Assembly (NCBI GenBank): GCA_963664015.2
Contig: CAXXLF010000002.1
Coordinates: 1,504,001 to 1,568,000 of the forward strand
Source: Candidatus Binatia bacterium
Lineage (GTDB): Bacteria; Desulfobacterota; Binatia; UBA9968; CAXXLF01
Direction of reading: 5' to 3'
DNA: 64,000 nucleotides
Shown here one piece after another: positions 2,581 through 30,201 of the stretch. A program made the position numbers and the translations under genes. The notes under the pieces were generated by a model. That model searched no databases. It was not told the DNA's origin and was given only the letters and a program-made list of their open reading frames with translations. Every line of letters starts with the position of its first letter. Within the stretch, counting starts at the first letter, position 1.

Positions 2581-2732
2581 CATCAAAGGGTGGGTGACGA
2601 TTCCAAACATCAAAGATGAGATCGGACTGTTCACTATTGACCTACGAAACGGTGATATATAGATATTTCTATAGATATCGAGAATAATGGAGCCAAGGAT
2701 TCACTAATCCCCCTGACCAAGAAAGACACACG

Positions 2733-4229
2733 ATGACGTACGTCCCTAACAACGCTGCCGCCGCGCGATTCGCTTTCGACAATACGTATGCGCGTGAACT
2801 TGAGGGCTTTTACATAACCTGCAAGGCGGCGCATGCGGCGCAGCCGAGGGTGGTTCAGCTCAACCGTGAGCTGGCTGAAGAATTGAAGCTGGATGCCGAT
2901 GCTCTCGATTCAGAGGAAGGCGCGAAAATCTTTGTGGGCAATGAGACACCCGAGGGAGCGGTCCCGCTGGCTCAAGTGTACGCCGGCCACCAGTTCGGCG
3001 GCTTCTCGCACCAACTTGGCGACGGGCGGGCGTTGCTCCTGGGTGAGGTGATCGACCGCAACGGCCGGCGCCGTGACATTCAGCTCAAAGGCTCTGGCCC
3101 CACTCCCTTTTCGCGCTCCGGCGACGGCCGGGCAGCGCTTGGACCAGTGTTACGTGAATATTTAATCGGTGAAGGGATGCACGCGCTTGGTATCCCGACG
3201 ACACGGGCGCTTGCCGCAGTGGTCACAGGTGAGCCTGTCTATCGCGAGATCAGGCTGCCGGGCGCGGTTTTGACGCGCGTTGCTGCCAGCCACATTCGTG
3301 TTGGCACCTTTCAGTTCTTCGCCGCTCGCGGGGAACAGGCCCAGGTGCGTCGCCTGGCCGATTACGTGATCGATCGACACTACGGGGAGCTAAAGGGCCA
3401 CGCAACCCCCTATCTGGGATTGCTTGAGCGCGTGTGTGATAGACAAGCGGCGCTCATTGCTAGCTGGATGCATGTGGGCTTCATTCATGGCGTGATGAAC
3501 ACCGACAATATGACGATCTCCGGTGAAACCATCGATTACGGCCCGTGCGCCTTTATGGATCATTATGATCCAGCGACAGTCTTCAGCTCCATCGATACGC
3601 AGGGCCGCTATGCCTACGCCAATCAGCCAAGGATCGCGCAGTGGAACCTTGCACGGCTTGCGGAGACGCTTGTACCCCTGATCGATGCTGATGAAAACCG
3701 CGCCATGGCACGCGCGACTGAGGTCCTCAATGCCTTTCCAGAACAATACGAACTGCAGTGGCTAAAAGGCATGCGCGCGAAGCTCGGACTGGTCAGTGAG
3801 GACGAGGCCGATCTCAACCTCGCCACGGGGTTTCTCGCCGCAATTGAGGGCAAGAAAGTTGACACCACGTTGGCTTTCCGTTACCTCGCTGATGCCGCCT
3901 TGGGCCAAGAGGAGCCGATTCGCTCCCTGTTTACCGATGCGTCGGCCTATGAGCTCTGGAGCGGACGCTGGCAGGCGCGGCTTGCCCGCGAGGCGGCGAC
4001 GCCTTTGGCGCGGGCGCAGGCGATGCGGCGTGTGAATCCCGCGTTCATCCCGCGCAATCATCGAGTTGAGGAGGCCTTGAGTGCTGCAACGGAACGCGAC
4101 GATTACGCGCCTTTTACAACACTGCTAAATATCGTATCGCACCCTTTCGACGATCAGCCGGAGTTTGCCGCCTTTGCCCAACCTGCGCCAGACGGACGAC
4201 CGCGCTACCAAACCTTCTGAGGCACCTGA
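2733..4229 (+). CDS. selO: Protein adenylyltransferase SelO (YdiU family). Ends at 4220 unless TGA 4218-4220 is read as selenocysteine.
   Basis: GHQFG, LGDGRA, QLKGSG-TPFSR-GDGRA, HGVMNTDN and TIDYGP motifs are intact. C-terminus reads YQTF-TGA-G-T-TGA. Confidence 0.92.
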
Positions 4230-4234
4230 CTAAC

Positions 4235-4249
4235 GCGTCCGGGCGACGC
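4235..4249 (+). promoter_or_regulatory. Candidate bacterial SECIS hairpin
   Basis: GCGTC-CGGGC-GACGC. The loop starts 19 nt after the TGA and has G at loop position 2. Confidence 0.5.
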
Positions 4250-4258
4250 AAAAACGTC

Positions 4259-4302
4259 ATGGGGGCAGATCTATGGAATCTTGTTTTTAACTTAATCAAA
4301 TA
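4259..4302 (+). repeat. Right copy of direct repeat flanking SelO
   Basis: ATGGGGGCAGATCTATGGAATCTTGTTTTTAACTTAATCAAATA. Confidence 0.85.
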
Positions 4303-4470
4303 GGTCGACGAACCGGTGCATCGCCAGAATCCATCGAAGCAAAACCGCGATTTTCACCAAATACACGTTGGCTTGACGACCCGCCGGTTCGACGCTATAT
4401 CTTTCGACAGAGTAAAAGGCCATTTAAATTTCCGTTAAATACAATCGACACAAGACCAGGAGGTAAGATT

Positions 4471-8187: not shown

Positions 8188-9209
8188 ATGCCTGTGAAAT
8201 TCGGATTCTCTATCCGTGGGATAGAGCCAATAACCAGAATGGCTGAGCTCGCCCAGCGAGCCGAAGAGGCCGGGTTTGACCAGCTCTGGACAGCCGACTC
8301 ACATGCCATCTTCAAGGAGCTCTACGTCACTTTGACCGCGATGGCTCTCAGGACCCGTCGTCTGAGTATCGGGCCGATTGCCACGAGTAACCGGACACGG
8401 CATCCGACCGTAACAGCCGCAGCCATGGCTGCTCTCGATGAAGTGTCTCGAGGCCGCGCCCTCTTGGGGTTCAGCGTTGGTGGTAGCGCAAACAGGGCCA
8501 TCGGTGCAGAACCATCCAGGATCAAGGAGTGCGAAGAGTTTATTGGGCTGATCCGAAAATTCTGGCGCGGTGAGCCGGTGACAACTGCAAATCCCCCTTT
8601 TCGCTTTCCTTGCCGCCAGATTCCTCTCTACTTCACTGGTTCAGGGCCGCGCGTTCTGACCATGGCGGCAAGGGTGGCCGACGGAGTGATCATCAGTGCC
8701 ACCGCTTTTCCACTAGCTGTTCGGAAAAAGGTCGGAATGGTCCGGAAAGCAAGCCAGGAAGCGGGTAGGAGTCCTACCAGCTGAAAGTAGGTTGCGAGGT
8801 TCACTGTTGCGTTTCTGAAGATTCCCAAACGGCAAAAAACTTGGTGAAACCCCTAATCGTCCACCTGGGAGTGACTCAGCCTGAACTTTTCCAACTTGCC
8901 GGCTTTGACATTGATATGAACCAGTTCCAAAAGGCGCATTCCAGTCAGGATGATCTGATGCATTCCAGCCGGTGGGAGAATGCTATTAAGGCGTCAGACT
9001 TTGTCACAGATGAAATGGTGGAACAATTCTTTGTGGCAGGCACCGCCGCGGAATGCCTCAGTAAGGTCAAGGCCCTTGCGGCCGAAGACCTCGACCACAT
9101 CATCATACGCCCCTTTCTCTCCTCCCCAGACCCGTCACGGTTGGAATTCGACCAGTCTTACATCATAGATAGCTTCGGGCGGGAAATCATCCCACGCCTG
9201 GCGGGCTAG
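8188..9209 (+). pseudogene. LLM-class flavin-dependent oxidoreductase, frameshift near 8775
   Basis: AEEAGFDQLWTADSH, RHPTVTAAA and GPRVL..AARVADG motifs. Continues in another frame (LKVGCEVHCCV...FGREIIPRL). Confidence 0.8.
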
Positions 9210-9405: not shown

Positions 9406-10158
9406 ATGGGCAGCACCGCGCAAACCAGTACATACAACCGGACATCATTTACCCGGGATGACCTTCATGGCCGCGACCGATCTAAGGCCGACTTCCAACC
9501 GAACCTGCACGTTGGCATGGAAGCCGTGGATTTCCCGCTGGTGGATCTGGACGGCCGAGCCATGCGGCTGTCCGACTATTGGGACAAAAAGCATCTCGTC
9601 GTGGAATTCGGTTGCATCACCGCACCGGTCTTTATTAACGACCTGAGCAGTCTCCACCGGATGCAACGGCAATTCAAAGACCAGGGAGTCCAGTTTCTGA
9701 TCATATATGCGCGGGAGGCTCATCCTGGAGCTCATTATCCGGCGCATACCTCCTTCGAACAAAAATTGAAACACGCACAGGACCTCAAGCATCAGGAAAA
9801 AGTGGACATCCCCGTTTTGGTCGATTCACTGGAAGGCCACGCACACCACGCTTACGGCGTCTCGCCAAGCCCGGTATACGCCATCGATAAAAACGGTATC
9901 GTGGTGTACAAATCGTCCTGGCTTAATCCCGGAGACCTCAAGTCCTTCCTCGCGGAGCTTCTCAGGAGCGAAGCCCTGAAAGCCAGTAGCGAACGGATGT
10001 CTCGGGTTGTCTACTCGGAAAAGCTCATGACGGTCCGGAGCAATTACGAAGTGCACGAGCAGGTATTTGAACGGGCTGGCCCCGGAGCCCGCGAAGACGT
10101 TAATAAGGCCTTCGGTGTAGACCCGGTGGAACTTGCCCGTAAGCAAAACAGCCGATAG
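9406..10158 (+). CDS. Thioredoxin-fold deiodinase-like/peroxiredoxin-like protein
   Basis: EFGCITAPVF and FLIIYAREAHP motifs; the YxREAHP-type motif is typical of the iodothyronine deiodinase-like family. Confidence 0.75.
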   Translation: MGSTAQTSTYNRTSFTRDDLHGRDRSKADFQPNLHVGMEAVDFPLVDLDGRAMRLSDYWDKKHLVVEFGCITAPVFINDLSSLHRMQRQFKDQGVQFLIIYAREAHPGAHYPAHTSFEQKLKHAQDLKHQEKVDIPVLVDSLEGHAHHAYGVSPSPVYAIDKNGIVVYKSSWLNPGDLKSFLAELLRSEALKASSERMSRVVYSEKLMTVRSNYEVHEQVFERAGPGAREDVNKAFGVDPVELARKQNSR

Positions 10159-14814: not shown

Positions 14815-15948
14815 ATGAATACTACTATAGGCAAGTTTCTAGGTTTTTTGTTGTTCTCCTGGCTCGTTGCCGCACCTGTTTTTACTGGAGCCGGGAAGGC
14901 GCATGCTAACTGGGAGGCCGAATGGAAAAAAACGGTGGAGGCAGCAAAAGAAGAAGGCCAGGTCAGGATCTACCTCTCCTCTAACCAGAACACCCTGCTT
15001 ATAAAATCGGGGGCTTTTCAGAAGAAATTTCCGGAGATCAAGGTGATTCTCGCGCTGGGAAGTCCACTCCAACGCATCATGACCGAACGAAGAGTTGAGA
15101 AATATGTCGCGGATATCGCGTTCACCGGTCCAGGCAGTCTTTGGCAACTCTATCTAGCCAAGGTCCTGGACCCGGTTAGAGATACCATTATTTTACCTGA
15201 GGTCGCCGATGAATCGAAGTGGTTTAATGGAAAACACTACTACGTGGACAAAGAACGAAAATACATTATTGCCGGTGTTGGGAACGTCGACCTTGGAGCT
15301 ATTTTCTATAACACCAAACTCATCAACCCCAAGGATTTTAAATCCTTCTGGGATTTATTCCGTCCCGAATTAAAAGGGAAGATAATCTCCCGAGATGTGC
15401 GAAGCCAGGGCCCGGGCAGCGTTACCATGAGAATGTTCTATCACAATCCCAAGTTAGGGACAAAGTTCATCCATCGCCTCTTCAGCGAAATGGATATTAC
15501 CCTTTTCCGTAATCAACGGCAAGGAATCGATTGGCTTGCCACCGGGAAGTATCCTATCTGCTTGTTCTGCAGCAACTCGCGTATACATTTTGCCAAACGT
15601 CAGGGACTCCCGGTAGACAGTTTTGGACTGATGAAAGAAGGCGCAGGGCTAATTGTGAGTGGGGGGAGTATCAGCGTTGTGAAGGGGGCTCCTCATCCTA
15701 ATGCGGCGAAAGTTTTCATCAACTGGTATCTCTCCCGGGAGGGACAGATAGCGCTGCAATTGGGAGGTGGCGGCACGGCCAATTCGCGCCGGATAGACAT
15801 CCCCAAAGACATGGTCCAGCCTAATCGGCGCCCACAGAAGGGCGTCACGTATATCGATACTGAGACTTGGGATCGGATCTCCATGGAACCCGTGCTCAAG
15901 GTGTTAAAAGCTGCTTTGGCGGAAGCAGACAAAAGAAAGAAAAAATAG
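14815..15948 (+). CDS. ABC substrate-binding protein, 377 aa paralog 1
   Basis: Signal peptide, WKKTVEAAKEEG and APHPNAAKVFINWYLSREGQ motifs. Confidence 0.9.
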   Translation: MNTTIGKFLGFLLFSWLVAAPVFTGAGKAHANWEAEWKKTVEAAKEEGQVRIYLSSNQNTLLIKSGAFQKKFPEIKVILALGSPLQRIMTERRVEKYVADIAFTGPGSLWQLYLAKVLDPVRDTIILPEVADESKWFNGKHYYVDKERKYIIAGVGNVDLGAIFYNTKLINPKDFKSFWDLFRPELKGKIISRDVRSQGPGSVTMRMFYHNPKLGTKFIHRLFSEMDITLFRNQRQGIDWLATGKYPICLFCSNSRIHFAKRQGLPVDSFGLMKEGAGLIVSGGSISVVKGAPHPNAAKVFINWYLSREGQIALQLGGGGTANSRRIDIPKDMVQPNRRPQKGVTYIDTETWDRISMEPVLKVLKAALAEADKRKKK

Positions 15949-16351: not shown

Positions 16352-17485
16352 CTATTTTTTCTTCCTTTGATGCGCTTCCGCCAAAACAGCGTTGATTATC
16401 TTGAGCACCGGTCTCGTTGATATCCGATCCCAAGCGTCGACTTCAATATACTTGCCGTCTTTCATGAGCCGCCGGTTGGGTGGGATACTGTCCCTTGGGA
16501 TGTCCATCCGGCGGGAATTTGAGAAACCGCGTTTTAATGTTTGCAACGCTATCTGTCCCTCCCGGGAGAGATACCAGTTGATGAAGACTTTCGCCGCATT
16601 AGGATGGGGCGCCCGGTTGACAACGGTGAGACCGCCTCCTCCCGAACTCAACGCCGCGCCTTCTTTCATCAGCCCAAATTTTTCTACCGGGAGTCCCTGA
16701 AACTTGGCGTTTTCTATCCGCGAGCTGTTGCAAAAAAGACAGATGGGGAATTTGCCTGTGGAAAGCCAATCGATTCCTTGCCGTTGATTGCGGAAAAACG
16801 TGAGATCCATTTCACCGAACAGACGCTTGATGAATTTAACCCCGAGTTCGGGATTGTGATAGTAGAACTTGATGGTCACGCTACCCGGACCAGGGGATCG
16901 GATATCCCGGGCCGCCATCTTCCCCTTCATTTCAGGACGGAGAAAATCCCACATGGAACGAAATTTTTTAGGTTTAATCAAGTTGGTATTGTAGTAAAAA
17001 TTTCCCGAGTCCGGGTTCCCAATAGCGACAAAGATGTATTTTTCTTCTTTGTCTACGTACTGGTGTTTCCCCCTGAACCACTTGGACTCATCGATGACCT
17101 CAGGTAAAATCATAGCGTCCCTTACCGGATCCAGGACCTTGGCCAGATAGAGCCGCCAGAGGGTGCTAGGTCCGGTGAGTGCAACATCGGCGAGGTATTT
17201 TTCCACTCTTCGCTCGGTGAGGATGCGGTGGAGCGGGTTTCCCAGCGCGACAAGGAGTTTGATCTCCGGGTACTTTTTCTGAAAAGCCCCCGACTCTAGA
17301 AGTAGATTGCTCTGCCTGGACGAGGTGTAGATTGTAACCTGGCCTTCTTCTTTTGCGGCCTCCACCGTTTTCTTCCATTCGGCCTCCCAGTTAGCATGCG
17401 CCTTCCCGGCTCCAGTAAAAGCAGGTGCGGCAACGAGCCAGGACAACAACAGAAAACCTAGAAATTTGCCTATAGTAGTATTCAT
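16352..17485 (-). CDS. ABC substrate-binding protein, 377 aa paralog 2
   Basis: Same family motifs; 5' end nearly identical to paralog 1. Confidence 0.9.
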   Translation of the reverse strand: MNTTIGKFLGFLLLSWLVAAPAFTGAGKAHANWEAEWKKTVEAAKEEGQVTIYTSSRQSNLLLESGAFQKKYPEIKLLVALGNPLHRILTERRVEKYLADVALTGPSTLWRLYLAKVLDPVRDAMILPEVIDESKWFRGKHQYVDKEEKYIFVAIGNPDSGNFYYNTNLIKPKKFRSMWDFLRPEMKGKMAARDIRSPGPGSVTIKFYYHNPELGVKFIKRLFGEMDLTFFRNQRQGIDWLSTGKFPICLFCNSSRIENAKFQGLPVEKFGLMKEGAALSSGGGGLTVVNRAPHPNAAKVFINWYLSREGQIALQTLKRGFSNSRRMDIPRDSIPPNRRLMKDGKYIEVDAWDRISTRPVLKIINAVLAEAHQRKKK

Positions 17486-23731: not shown

Positions 23732-24865
23732 TTATTTTTTCTTTCTCTTTTCCGCATCTCTTACACCAGCGATGAACGCTTTGAGCGCAGGGCGCATGGA
23801 GATCCGTTGCCAGTTTTCAGTATTGATATACCTGACACCCTTCTGAGGCAGCCGTGAAGGCATAATTTTATCTTTCGGGATGTCGATTCGACGCGAGTTT
23901 GTGGAGCCGCCTCCTACCGATTGCAGCGCTATCTGCCCCTCGCGGGAGAGGAACCAGTTAATGAAGACCTTCGCCGCGTTAGGGTGACGCGGCCTATTAA
24001 CAATACTTATAGCGCCCCCACTTACAATCAACCCTGCCCCTTCTTTCATCAATCCAAAACCTTCTACCGGAAGCCCCTGAGTCTTGCCTGTTTGTATGCG
24101 AGTGTGGTTACAGAAAATGCAAATAGGGTATTTGCCAGTAGCAAGCCAATCGATTCCTTGCCGTTGATTCCGAAAAAGGGTGATATCCATTTCGCCGAAG
24201 AGACGCCGGATGAATTTAGGGCCCAATTCAGGAATGGCATTGAACATTCTCATGGTAACGCTGCCTGGGCCTGGGGTTCGGACATCTCGCGCGGACATTT
24301 TCCCTTTCCATTCGGGCCGGAGAAAGTCCCAGAAGGATTTAAAATCCTTAGGATTGATTTGTTTGGTGTTATAGAAAAAAGCCCCCAGATCGACGTTTCC
24401 AACCGCAGCAAAGATGTATTTTTGTTCTTTGTCTACGTAGTAGTGTTTTCCCTGAAGCCACTTTGATTTATCAGTGACCTCGGGCAAGATAAACGTATCA
24501 CTAATTGGGTCCAGGACCTTGGCTTGATGGAGTCGCCAAATACTGCTGGGACCGGTAAACGCGACATCCGCGAGGTATTTATGGACTCTTCGCTCGGTAA
24601 GGATACGGTGGAGCGGATTTCCAAGCGCGACAAGGAGTTTGATCTCTGGGAACTTTTTCTGAAAAGCCCCCGACTCTAGAAGCAGGTTGTTCTGCCTGGA
24701 TGAGGTGTAGATCGTAACCTGCCCCTCTTTTTTTGCTGCTTCCACTGTTTTCTTCCAGTCGGCCTCCCAGGAAGCCTGCGCCTTTTCGGCTCCAGTGAAA
24801 GCATACGCGGCAATGAGACAGAGCCACAACAACAATCCCGGAAATTTTCGAACAATAGTATTCAT
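23732..24865 (-). CDS. ABC substrate-binding protein, 377 aa paralog 3
   Basis: Collinear with paralogs 1 and 2. Confidence 0.9.
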   Translation of the reverse strand: MNTIVRKFPGLLLWLCLIAAYAFTGAEKAQASWEADWKKTVEAAKKEGQVTIYTSSRQNNLLLESGAFQKKFPEIKLLVALGNPLHRILTERRVHKYLADVAFTGPSSIWRLHQAKVLDPISDTFILPEVTDKSKWLQGKHYYVDKEQKYIFAAVGNVDLGAFFYNTKQINPKDFKSFWDFLRPEWKGKMSARDVRTPGPGSVTMRMFNAIPELGPKFIRRLFGEMDITLFRNQRQGIDWLATGKYPICIFCNHTRIQTGKTQGLPVEGFGLMKEGAGLIVSGGAISIVNRPRHPNAAKVFINWFLSREGQIALQSVGGGSTNSRRIDIPKDKIMPSRLPQKGVRYINTENWQRISMRPALKAFIAGVRDAEKRKKK

Positions 24866-29074: not shown

Positions 29075-29910
29075 ATGGCCAAAATTACTCTGGGTATTGG
29101 CTCATCTCATGCGCCGCAGCTCGCGATGCCTCCCGAGAACTGGCGAGAATACGGTGATTGGGCGCGGACTCAGCCGGAACACTGGTTCGAAGGGAAAACG
29201 TACTCCTTCCCGGAACTTGTCGAGGCCCGCGCGAAAGACCACTTCGAAAAGGAATGCACTGAAGAGAAGTTCCGGGCCCGCTTCGAATCTTGTCAGAAGG
29301 GGATCGCCCATCTCCGTGAAACCCTGGGTCGCATCGCCCCCGACGCCTGCGTCATTTTCGGTGACGACCAGAAAGAGGTCTTTGGCGACGACAACATGCC
29401 GCCCATCGCTATTTACCACGGCGCAACCGTCGACGACGCACCCAATGGACGCCGGGGGGGGGGTATAGCGGGGGCGGCCTGCTGTCCGTGACCCGATCAT
29501 CGATAACGCTCCGCCGGACCGCCTCAGCCATCCGGCAGAGGCCGGGTTGGGACAACACCTCATCGAGGCGCTGACCGCCAACGACTTGGATGTGACACGC
29601 ACCAATGCTCTCGGGGGACGCCTCGATGCCGGGATCGGACACGCCTTCTACTACATCTATCGCAGGTTAATGAACAACAAAACGATCCCCCACGTGCCGG
29701 TAATGGCGAACACCTACTATCCACCGAATGTGCCGATCGCTACGCGGTGCTATCGGTTAGGCCAGGCAGTGCGCCAGGTGATCGAGGAGGAGCTTGACTC
29801 GCGTATCCTGGAGAGCGTGCAGAACGACGATATGGCAAAGCTCACTGACTACCCCGACGTCCGGTTCCGTGCCGGCACTTCTGAGATCAAGAATTGGGTC
29901 ACCCTGGCGG
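29075..29910 (+). pseudogene. LigB-like dioxygenase with frameshift, internal deletion and 3' truncation
   Basis: GSSHAPQL, FGDDQKEVF, IGHAF, NTYYPPN and GTSEIKNW motifs; the SGGLSH segment is missing. Confidence 0.8.
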
Positions 29911-30201
29911 GTACCCCCGTTGTTGATGACCACGTCGATGGTGCCGAACTTCTCCATCGCCTCCTCGTACATCTCGTTCACCTGGGATTGGAGCGTGATG
30001 TCTATGACCCCTATCAGTACGTTAGGGTTGCCTTTCAGCTCCTCGCGGAAATCGGAATCGTCGTTCGACACGCCCGTAGGCACCCACGACAGGTCCGTCG
30101 CGACGACCCTCGCCCCCCTCCTTGAGGAATACGCGGACCATCTCGCGGCCCATACCCCGGGCTTCCCCGGTTACTAAGACGACTTTATTTTCAACAGACA
30201 T
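29905..30201 (-). pseudogene. SDR oxidoreductase 5' fragment
   Basis: MSVENKVVLVTGEARGMGRE...KFGTIDVVINNG, which then abuts the LigB relic. Confidence 0.75.

Follow-up and report, generated by a model that had tools for sequence, protein, structure and literature searches.

A SelO gene of a Candidatus Binatia bacterium with a predicted selenocysteine codon and a candidate SECIS hairpin just past its stop codon

The selO gene, its in-frame TGA and the selenocysteine genes

The stretch of DNA analysed here, called the window, comprises 64,000 nucleotides from the genome of a Candidatus Binatia bacterium (3.51 Mb in two contigs, C1 and C2, 97% complete; the window is C2:1504001-1568000). It holds on its plus strand a gene of the SelO family, selO, with an in-frame TGA close to its 3' end. 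Under translation table 11 the open reading frame (ORF) runs from 2733 to 4220 and gives 495 amino acids, stopping at this first TGA. Read through it, the coding sequence extends over 2733-4229 and consists of 498 codons (Met1 to Thr498, with a predicted selenocysteine, Sec, as residue 496) and a true stop, the translation ending in ...RYQTFUGT. These limits were drawn from the ORF and its read-through translation, from Pfam, and from alignment with PDB chains. The product matches the Pfam SelO profile PF02696 at full length (E 8.3e-116, 387.9 bits, profile positions 6-464 of 466), and four solved SelO/YdiU chains (6eac, 6k20, 6iii and 9jym) match it at E about 1e-100. A preliminary description of this DNA had called the catalytic motifs intact, and this was borne out: K119, H252, N256, D258, N259 and D268 are all there, and each is the same in 94 of 94 aligned homologues. 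Among them K119 is taken as the catalytic Lys and D268 of the DFG-like motif as the metal-binding Asp of SelO, and the HGVxNTDN loop is present too. The product is a predicted protein adenylyltransferase of the SelO/YdiU type, to which AMPylation or UMPylation activity is attributed from its family.

Window positions 4206-4229 read TAC CAA ACC TTC TGA GGC ACC TGA, in which TGA occurs twice in frame, at 4218-4220 and at 4227-4229. The former aligns with the conserved C-terminal Cys of the solved homologues (residue 486 of 488 in 6eac, 476 of 478 in 6k20, 480 of 482 in 6iii and 489 of 491 in 9jym) and is the codon of the predicted Sec496; GGC ACC TGA at 4221-4229 then supplies Gly497, Thr498 and the true stop. 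In the homologues without a TGA the same column was TGC or TGT (Cys) in 74 of 74 examined, 16 of them from the clade to which this gene belongs and 58 from outside it. Many bacterial SelO proteins had been described beforehand as ending in TFCGT-stop; all 58 out-of-clade homologues are indeed Cys forms, 57 with this ending and one with TYCGT-stop. Contigs of two public runs from two different studies, one of which may be the source sample, cover 4142/4154-4400 and show zero differences, and among the contigs of a public RNA run (X16) none covered the selO 3' end. Because gene callers end selO at the first TGA, the three final residues of the protein will be absent from pipeline annotations.

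The genes for Sec synthesis and insertion that the preliminary description had named were all found in the genome, inside C2:1306765-1322629. The genes selA (C2:1306765-1307862, E 1.6e-156), selB (C2:1309119-1311005, 408.7 bits against a cut-off of 242) and selD (C2:1311134-1312057, 372.7 bits) are adjacent, and the tRNA-Sec gene selC (anticodon tca, C2:1322535, 74.2 bits) follows about 10 kb further. There is one in-frame TGA in selD, at C2:1311164, and it falls on the active-site position (...KAAG-U-AAKLG). Since selD is thereby predicted to carry Sec itself, the Sec system would be in use.

The downstream hairpin and its distribution among relatives

A short candidate hairpin of the selenocysteine insertion sequence (SECIS) type lies at 4235-4249 on the plus strand, with a 5-bp stem GCGUC/GACGC and the loop CGGGC (GCGTC at 4235-4239, CGGGC at 4240-4244 and GACGC at 4245-4249). 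Fourteen nucleotides separate it from the first TGA and five from the true stop, so that it is wholly 3' of the coding sequence. The preliminary description had read the tail as YQTF*GT* followed by this very hairpin, with its loop 19 nt after the first TGA and a G at loop position 2, and the sequence bears it out in each detail. A published model of bacterial SECIS elements (bSECIS), as set out in a 2026 review (PMC13188914), calls for 4-16 bp in the upper stem, 3-9 nt in the apical loop and a distance of 16-37 nt between the UGA and the loop; one or both of the first two loop positions should be G, as a rule with G or U next. The selO hairpin has this geometry, with its 5-nt loop, 5-bp stem, 19-nt spacing and a G at loop position 2 followed by another G. 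The sequence 3' of it is A-rich and has no T run, which is why the hairpin is not an intrinsic terminator on the plus strand.

The occurrence of TGA and of the hairpin was followed through the relatives of this genome. A SelO match was present in 8 of 41 related genomes, with a TGA inside the match in four and none in the other four. In the order as a whole a match was found in 47 of 123 genomes; 46 match rows reach the C-terminus, 24 with a TGA (one fragment has two) and 22 without. TGA rows occur in 24 of the 43 genomes in which the SelO C-terminus is covered. These tallies include one unpublished genome (G065), which contributes an N-terminal SelO fragment only and supports nothing else. 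The sequences of close relatives are deposited as metagenome-assembled genomes of Candidatus Binatia or of 'uncultured delta proteobacterium'. When 39 distinct C-terminal fragments were checked at the codon level, 22 had TGA and 17 had TGC or TGT (the 16 in-clade forms and one from Rhodoferax). The 22 TGA forms have full-length intact frames, invariant catalytic residues and 74-93% protein identity to this SelO, and every one of them reads T-[F/Y]-TGA-GGN-ACN-TGA. Past the first TGA they differ in third positions only: the Gly codon is GGC in 11, GGT in 7 and GGG in 4, the Thr codon is ACC in 20, ACA in one and ACT in one, and the stop is TGA in 22 of 22. Because only two codons are available, this coding conservation carries small statistical weight.

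The hairpin follows the codon closely. All 22 TGA forms have the 15-nt hairpin with 0-2 mismatches, and in all of them the five core pairs form, at an offset of 5 nt after the stop in 21 and of 4 nt in one (L044). The 16 in-clade Cys forms have 2-9 mismatches to it, none being intact, and the 58 outgroup sequences have 4-12, at arbitrary offsets. In at least five Cys forms a decayed copy stands at the homologous offset, with 2 mismatches in L036, 4 in L029, L031 and L034, and 5 in L023; a typical decayed copy reads GAGTCAGGGAGACGC, with one stem pair broken. Rather than close homologues with TGC or TGT throughout and an unconserved hairpin, a pattern that the preliminary description had allowed for, we found 22 TGA forms that keep the hairpin. 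The ending TFUGT and the SECIS in the 3' untranslated region that it had predicted are supported by these forms and by the association with the hairpin. Two related genomes also have a second, partial SelO C-terminal copy in the Cys form (G087:C29:435912-436154 and G088:C9:295131-295385), which covers residues about 415-498 at 67-73% identity and lies 3-4 kb from the full-length Cys-form gene.

Beyond the order, a phylum sample of 401 genomes had 23 with a SelO match, and a TGA occurred in this genome only. When clusters at 50% identity were searched, the match coordinates of the 150 best representatives showed none that broke off immediately ahead of the Sec site, and every match that reached query residue 498 ended at the last residue of the protein concerned. 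The searches outside the order are not exhaustive, because they did not recover the published Desulfosediminicola gene.

The hairpin also belongs to the conserved unit of the gene. In a blastn comparison of the locus with the loci of six relatives, homology covers window positions about 2643-4254 and nothing beyond (in L020, 1411/1467 to 3017/3022). Relative to the gene, the block opens about 90 nt before the start codon and closes shortly 3' of the hairpin, and the flanks of selO are not syntenic in the six relatives compared. As nucleotide homology ends only a few bases past the hairpin, we regard the hairpin as part of the selO gene unit. The upstream part of the block is a 5' leader common to the relatives (2643-2732, plus strand), within which TATAGATAT occurs twice in tandem (2658-2666 and 2670-2678), 3 nt apart and about 55-75 nt upstream of the selO start; this pair is possibly a promoter or an operator. 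Just outside the homology block, a 39-nt direct repeat with 87% identity (2540-2578 and 4261-4299) brackets the unit. The whole genome has only these two copies and one weak match with 8 mismatches (C2:1532355), and the repeat is possibly a trace of selO insertion or recombination, or else a shared regulatory site.

Proposed decoding, its alternatives and the history of the site

We propose, with a probability of roughly 0.88, that this SelO gene inserts Sec as the third-from-last residue of its product, directed by the hairpin just past the stop codon. At UGA 4218-4220, SelB loaded with Sec-tRNA(Sec) would be held by the hairpin 14 nt downstream (4235-4249, loop CGGGC) and would deliver Sec at codon 496 in place of termination. 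Gly and Thr would then be added, and translation would stop at the next UGA (4227-4229), which in this proposal is not recoded because it lies too close to the hairpin. Bacterial SECIS elements are described in the 2026 review as residing in coding regions (PMC13188914). The one proposed here cannot do so, because only two codons follow the Sec codon, and for the same reason it would lie entirely in the 3' untranslated region. As to function, E. coli SelO is reported to be regulated by a disulfide between Cys272 of the activation loop and the C-terminal Cys476 (PMC7278666). We infer that Sec496 would take the place of this C-terminal Cys and form a selenylsulfide, probably with Cys272 of the activation-loop motif DYGPC (TGC at 3546-3548, plus strand), by which AMPylation would be redox-switched. 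This partner is proposed because the position of E. coli YdiU Cys272 is Phe here (F284), as it is in 94 of 94 sequences of the subfamily, and the DYGPC Cys is invariant in the same 94; at the latter position E. coli and P. syringae have Phe.

Several observations weigh against this proposal. Folded by itself with its flanks, the hairpin is weak at -7.3 kcal/mol (z -1.3), the model asking for a minimum free energy of -7.5 kcal/mol or lower in the energy limit quoted in the review (PMC13188914), and the bare hairpin without dangling ends reaches only -5.8 kcal/mol. Bare energies over the 22 TGA forms were -7.9 to -8.3 kcal/mol in 11, -7.4 in 2 and -5.2 to -5.8 in 9. A hairpin of the same geometry and at least the same stability follows 47 of the 744 TGA-ending ORFs of at least 250 codons in this genome (6.3%), and in a 45-nt context of this genome's sequence ViennaRNA favours another fold, although that alternative is the less conserved one (with 80% of its cells paired and one of its pairs broken in 17 of 21 sequences). 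A scan of 4100-4400 up to E 10 matched the hairpin to no Rfam family and gave only two hits at chance level. TF-TGA-GT homologues with a covarying hairpin had been looked to as support by the preliminary description; the homologues were found, 22 with the same hairpin, but the hairpin does not covary, and no covariation is obtainable from it because its stem is nearly invariant. The only changes among the TGA forms are one U-A to U-G and a variable sixth position (C-G in 6, U-A in 2, unpaired in 14). Nor is co-occurrence with the Sec machinery informative within the order, because selA was found in 116 of its 123 genomes, Cys-form and TGA-form genomes alike (a tally that includes three unpublished genomes, G067, G083 and G101). 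Furthermore, Phe at the E. coli partner position makes Cys272 of DYGPC a guess, and bacterial Sec-containing SelO proteins are described as predictions only in the papers that treat them (PMC12013277 and PMC13188914). In a single genome, then, the hairpin is within chance; what is beyond chance is its conservation across genomes and its exclusive link with TGA.

Some of these points would suit a gene that really ends at its first TGA, with a SelO three residues shorter, devoid of the C-terminal Cys, and a hairpin that serves mRNA stability or protein binding: the hairpin alone is statistically ordinary, it lies past the gene end whichever TGA is the stop, and Sec in bacterial SelO rests on prediction. 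We nevertheless consider a real stop improbable. Gly-Thr is kept past the TGA with third-position changes only and an in-frame stop always next, the hairpin comes only with TGA and decays where the codon is TGC, the A-rich sequence that follows it is not that of an intrinsic terminator, and a C-terminal Cys is present in all 74 non-TGA homologues examined. Decoding of UGA496 by a near-cognate Trp or Cys tRNA, with the hairpin as a generic stimulator of read-through, has in its favour that sequence data do not distinguish the inserted residue. It is harder still to credit, since the redox Cys site is a classic position of Sec/Cys exchange, the genome has a complete Sec system along with a predicted Sec-containing SelD, and the geometry of the hairpin fits the SelB-type model. 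The preliminary description had itself raised the concern that TGC to TGA is a single-base change, and two other genes of the window do look shortened against their Pfam profiles. A nonsense mutation in a decaying gene, or a sequencing or assembly error, is nonetheless excluded for practical purposes because the TGA is conserved in 22 distinct sequences, which come from different genomes and have intact frames; the public-run contigs also agree in full over 4142/4154-4400.

The history of the proposed Sec codon was examined in a maximum-likelihood tree of 48 SelO sequences (36 in-clade and 12 outgroups; quick LG+G4 search, Sec/Cys column masked). The in-clade sequences form one group (Shimodaira-Hasegawa-like approximate likelihood ratio test, SH-aLRT, 99), and the outgroups, from Nitrospinota, Burkholderiales, Rhizobiaceae, Bryobacter and Competibacteraceae, are all Cys forms. 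At the base of this group stand two rows with Cys, which show no sign of the hairpin. Above them the Sec and Cys forms are interspersed, which takes a minimum of 8 state changes, only 2 of them forced by well-supported branches, and both forms stand side by side within the genera g6, g10, g20 and g27. A single clade of all 22 Sec forms was marginally rejected by the approximately unbiased (AU) test (p 0.026, for a group named after the tree had been seen). The simplest reading, which the tree suggests, is that Sec was gained once near the base of the clade and that one or more reversions to Cys came later, with hairpins left to decay. In the family of this genome (f1), SelO was found in one of four other genomes, and the present selO nests among sequences of family f2, a position compatible with transfer within the order.

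The residue at position -5 from the Sec/Cys site differs between the forms. It is Arg in 16 and His in 6 of the 22 Sec forms, but Cys in 11 of the 14 full-length in-clade Cys forms (C-Y-x-T-F-C), the three exceptions being L038 with Arg and the two basal rows with Gly. Cys is absent from this position in all 58 outgroups. The second Cys looks like compensation for the loss of Sec, but it may reflect only one or two events. Its association with reversion lacks statistical power because only 2 independent pairs stand on well-supported branches, and monophyly of the 11 forms with -5 Cys was not rejected (p-AU 0.09). A fuller scenario can be drawn from these data, though we hold it to be rather doubtful as a whole: Sec-SelO would have been gained once in this order, independently of eukaryotes and possibly of Desulfosediminicola, with a minimal 15-nt SECIS in the 3' untranslated region, and the Cys revertants would have undergone hairpin decay and acquired a second Cys five residues upstream. 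If it were true, one Sec would do the redox job for which the sulfur version needs two cysteines, and the order would provide a natural experiment in what a regulatory switch gains from Sec.

Other genes and known systems

The preliminary description had spoken of many nonsense mutations in the window; two genes do look shortened against Pfam profiles, but in this partial check the gene map is otherwise ordinary. One is a luciferase-like monooxygenase ORF (8188-8784, plus strand) that covers profile positions 20-217 of 314 only, and the other a LigB-like frame (29075-30125, plus strand) that corresponds to positions 87-168 of 269 and is split over two ORFs; these may be what was meant. A 250-amino-acid protein encoded at 9406-10158 (plus strand) matches the iodothyronine deiodinase profile PF00837 (E 5.2e-15) as well as the AhpC/TSA and Redoxin profiles. 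At a position where Sec is found in some proteins of such families it has Cys (FGCITAP), and no TGA lies inside the ORF. Three ORFs are exactly 377 amino acids long (14815-15948 on the plus strand, 16352-17485 and 23732-24865 on the minus strand) and are probably paralogous transporter components; the first matches solute-binding protein profiles (SBP_bac_8), and the other two fell outside that scan. Nine further read-through candidates, that is, other TGA-interrupted frames in the window, were scanned against Pfam, and none was like a selenoprotein gene.

In the genome at large, a resemblance between the selO hairpin and one after the selD UGA (shared GUCCnGnCGAC) was considered and is taken as coincidence. 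In selD another hairpin, further downstream, fits the model better (8-bp stem, loop GUU). A genome-wide scan for the GUCCnGnCGAC motif after a TGA gave 39 matches and no convincing further selenoprotein gene. The molybdopterin oxidoreductases of the genome were likewise searched as possible selenoproteins, and a TGA was inside none of the matches. At about 690.8-691.6 kb of C1, a frame resembling a molybdopterin oxidoreductase is interrupted by an in-frame stop after ...IRGGTIA and by more frame breaks downstream; it is either a decayed gene or another recoded gene.

Eukaryotic SECIS elements have a kink-turn, lie far downstream in the 3' untranslated region and are read by SBP2 and eEFSec. 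The selO locus differs from this arrangement in its 15-nt hairpin only 14 nt past the UGA, as in the bacterial SelB system, and a scan of window positions 4100-4400 with the Rfam SECIS families up to E 10 found no element of the eukaryotic kink-turn type. Since the 58 nearer bacterial homologues from outside the clade are Cys forms without exception, the predicted bacterial Sec-SelO would have arisen separately from the eukaryotic one. Eukaryotic SELENOO belongs to the same family and has its Sec near the C-terminus, where other SelO proteins have Cys, according to a 2020 review, which states that SelO is a selenoprotein only in higher eukaryotes and has Cys in all prokaryotes (PMC7278666).

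For bacteria that statement has since been modified. The deep-Sep paper (mSystems 2025, PMC12013277) describes a predicted Sec-containing SelO-like protein of Desulfosediminicola ganghwensis IMCC35004, mentions TGA-containing SelO homologues in other Sec-using bacteria, and reports a bSECIS-like structure downstream; the D. ganghwensis Sec-SelO is also listed, as WP_136798779.1, in the 2026 review (PMC13188914). The preliminary description had considered Sec in a bacterial SelO unusual, which agrees with the Cys in all 58 out-of-clade homologues but has to be qualified by this prediction. A Sec-containing bacterial SelO is not a first, and the present gene is a new member from another lineage. 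Our literature search, which did not extend to the deep-Sep paper's figures and supplements, where other taxa may be named, found no paper on the SelO of this clade. By its published description, on which our comparison relies in place of its sequence, the D. ganghwensis protein shares with ours the family (COG0397/PF02696), the predicted Sec, the existence of TGA and Cys homologues, and the bSECIS-like structure downstream; it differs in coming from another organism. The same paper suggests that the Sec forms evolved from Cys forms (PMC12013277), and here the tree and the decayed hairpins would point to reversion from Sec to Cys as well. The 2025 prediction concerned one bacterium, and the selO locus adds a whole clade to bacterial Sec-SelO. 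With Sec and Cys forms within single genera, this clade is also well suited to the question of what makes lineages retain or lose Sec at a cysteine that is regulatory and not catalytic.

The E. coli and P. syringae SelO/YdiU proteins (6k20, 6iii, 9jym and 6eac) have the fold family and the catalytic residues in common with the selO product, and their C-terminal Cys lies at the position of the TGA; they differ from it in having Cys, not Sec. For the position of the hairpin, the closest parallel is an engineered one. A bacterial SECIS placed past the stop codon works in E. coli for proteins with a C-terminal Sec, such as thioredoxin reductase, as described in PMC10778597. The mammalian thioredoxin reductase expressed in E. 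coli by Arner et al. in 1999, as cited there, has its Sec one or two residues from the C-terminus and a SelB-binding hairpin just after the stop, much as proposed for selO. That system was a laboratory construct with the SECIS of E. coli fdhH, whereas the arrangement at selO is natural and its hairpin has another sequence, which would make selO a natural example, as predicted here, of a bacterial SECIS that lies wholly past the stop codon.

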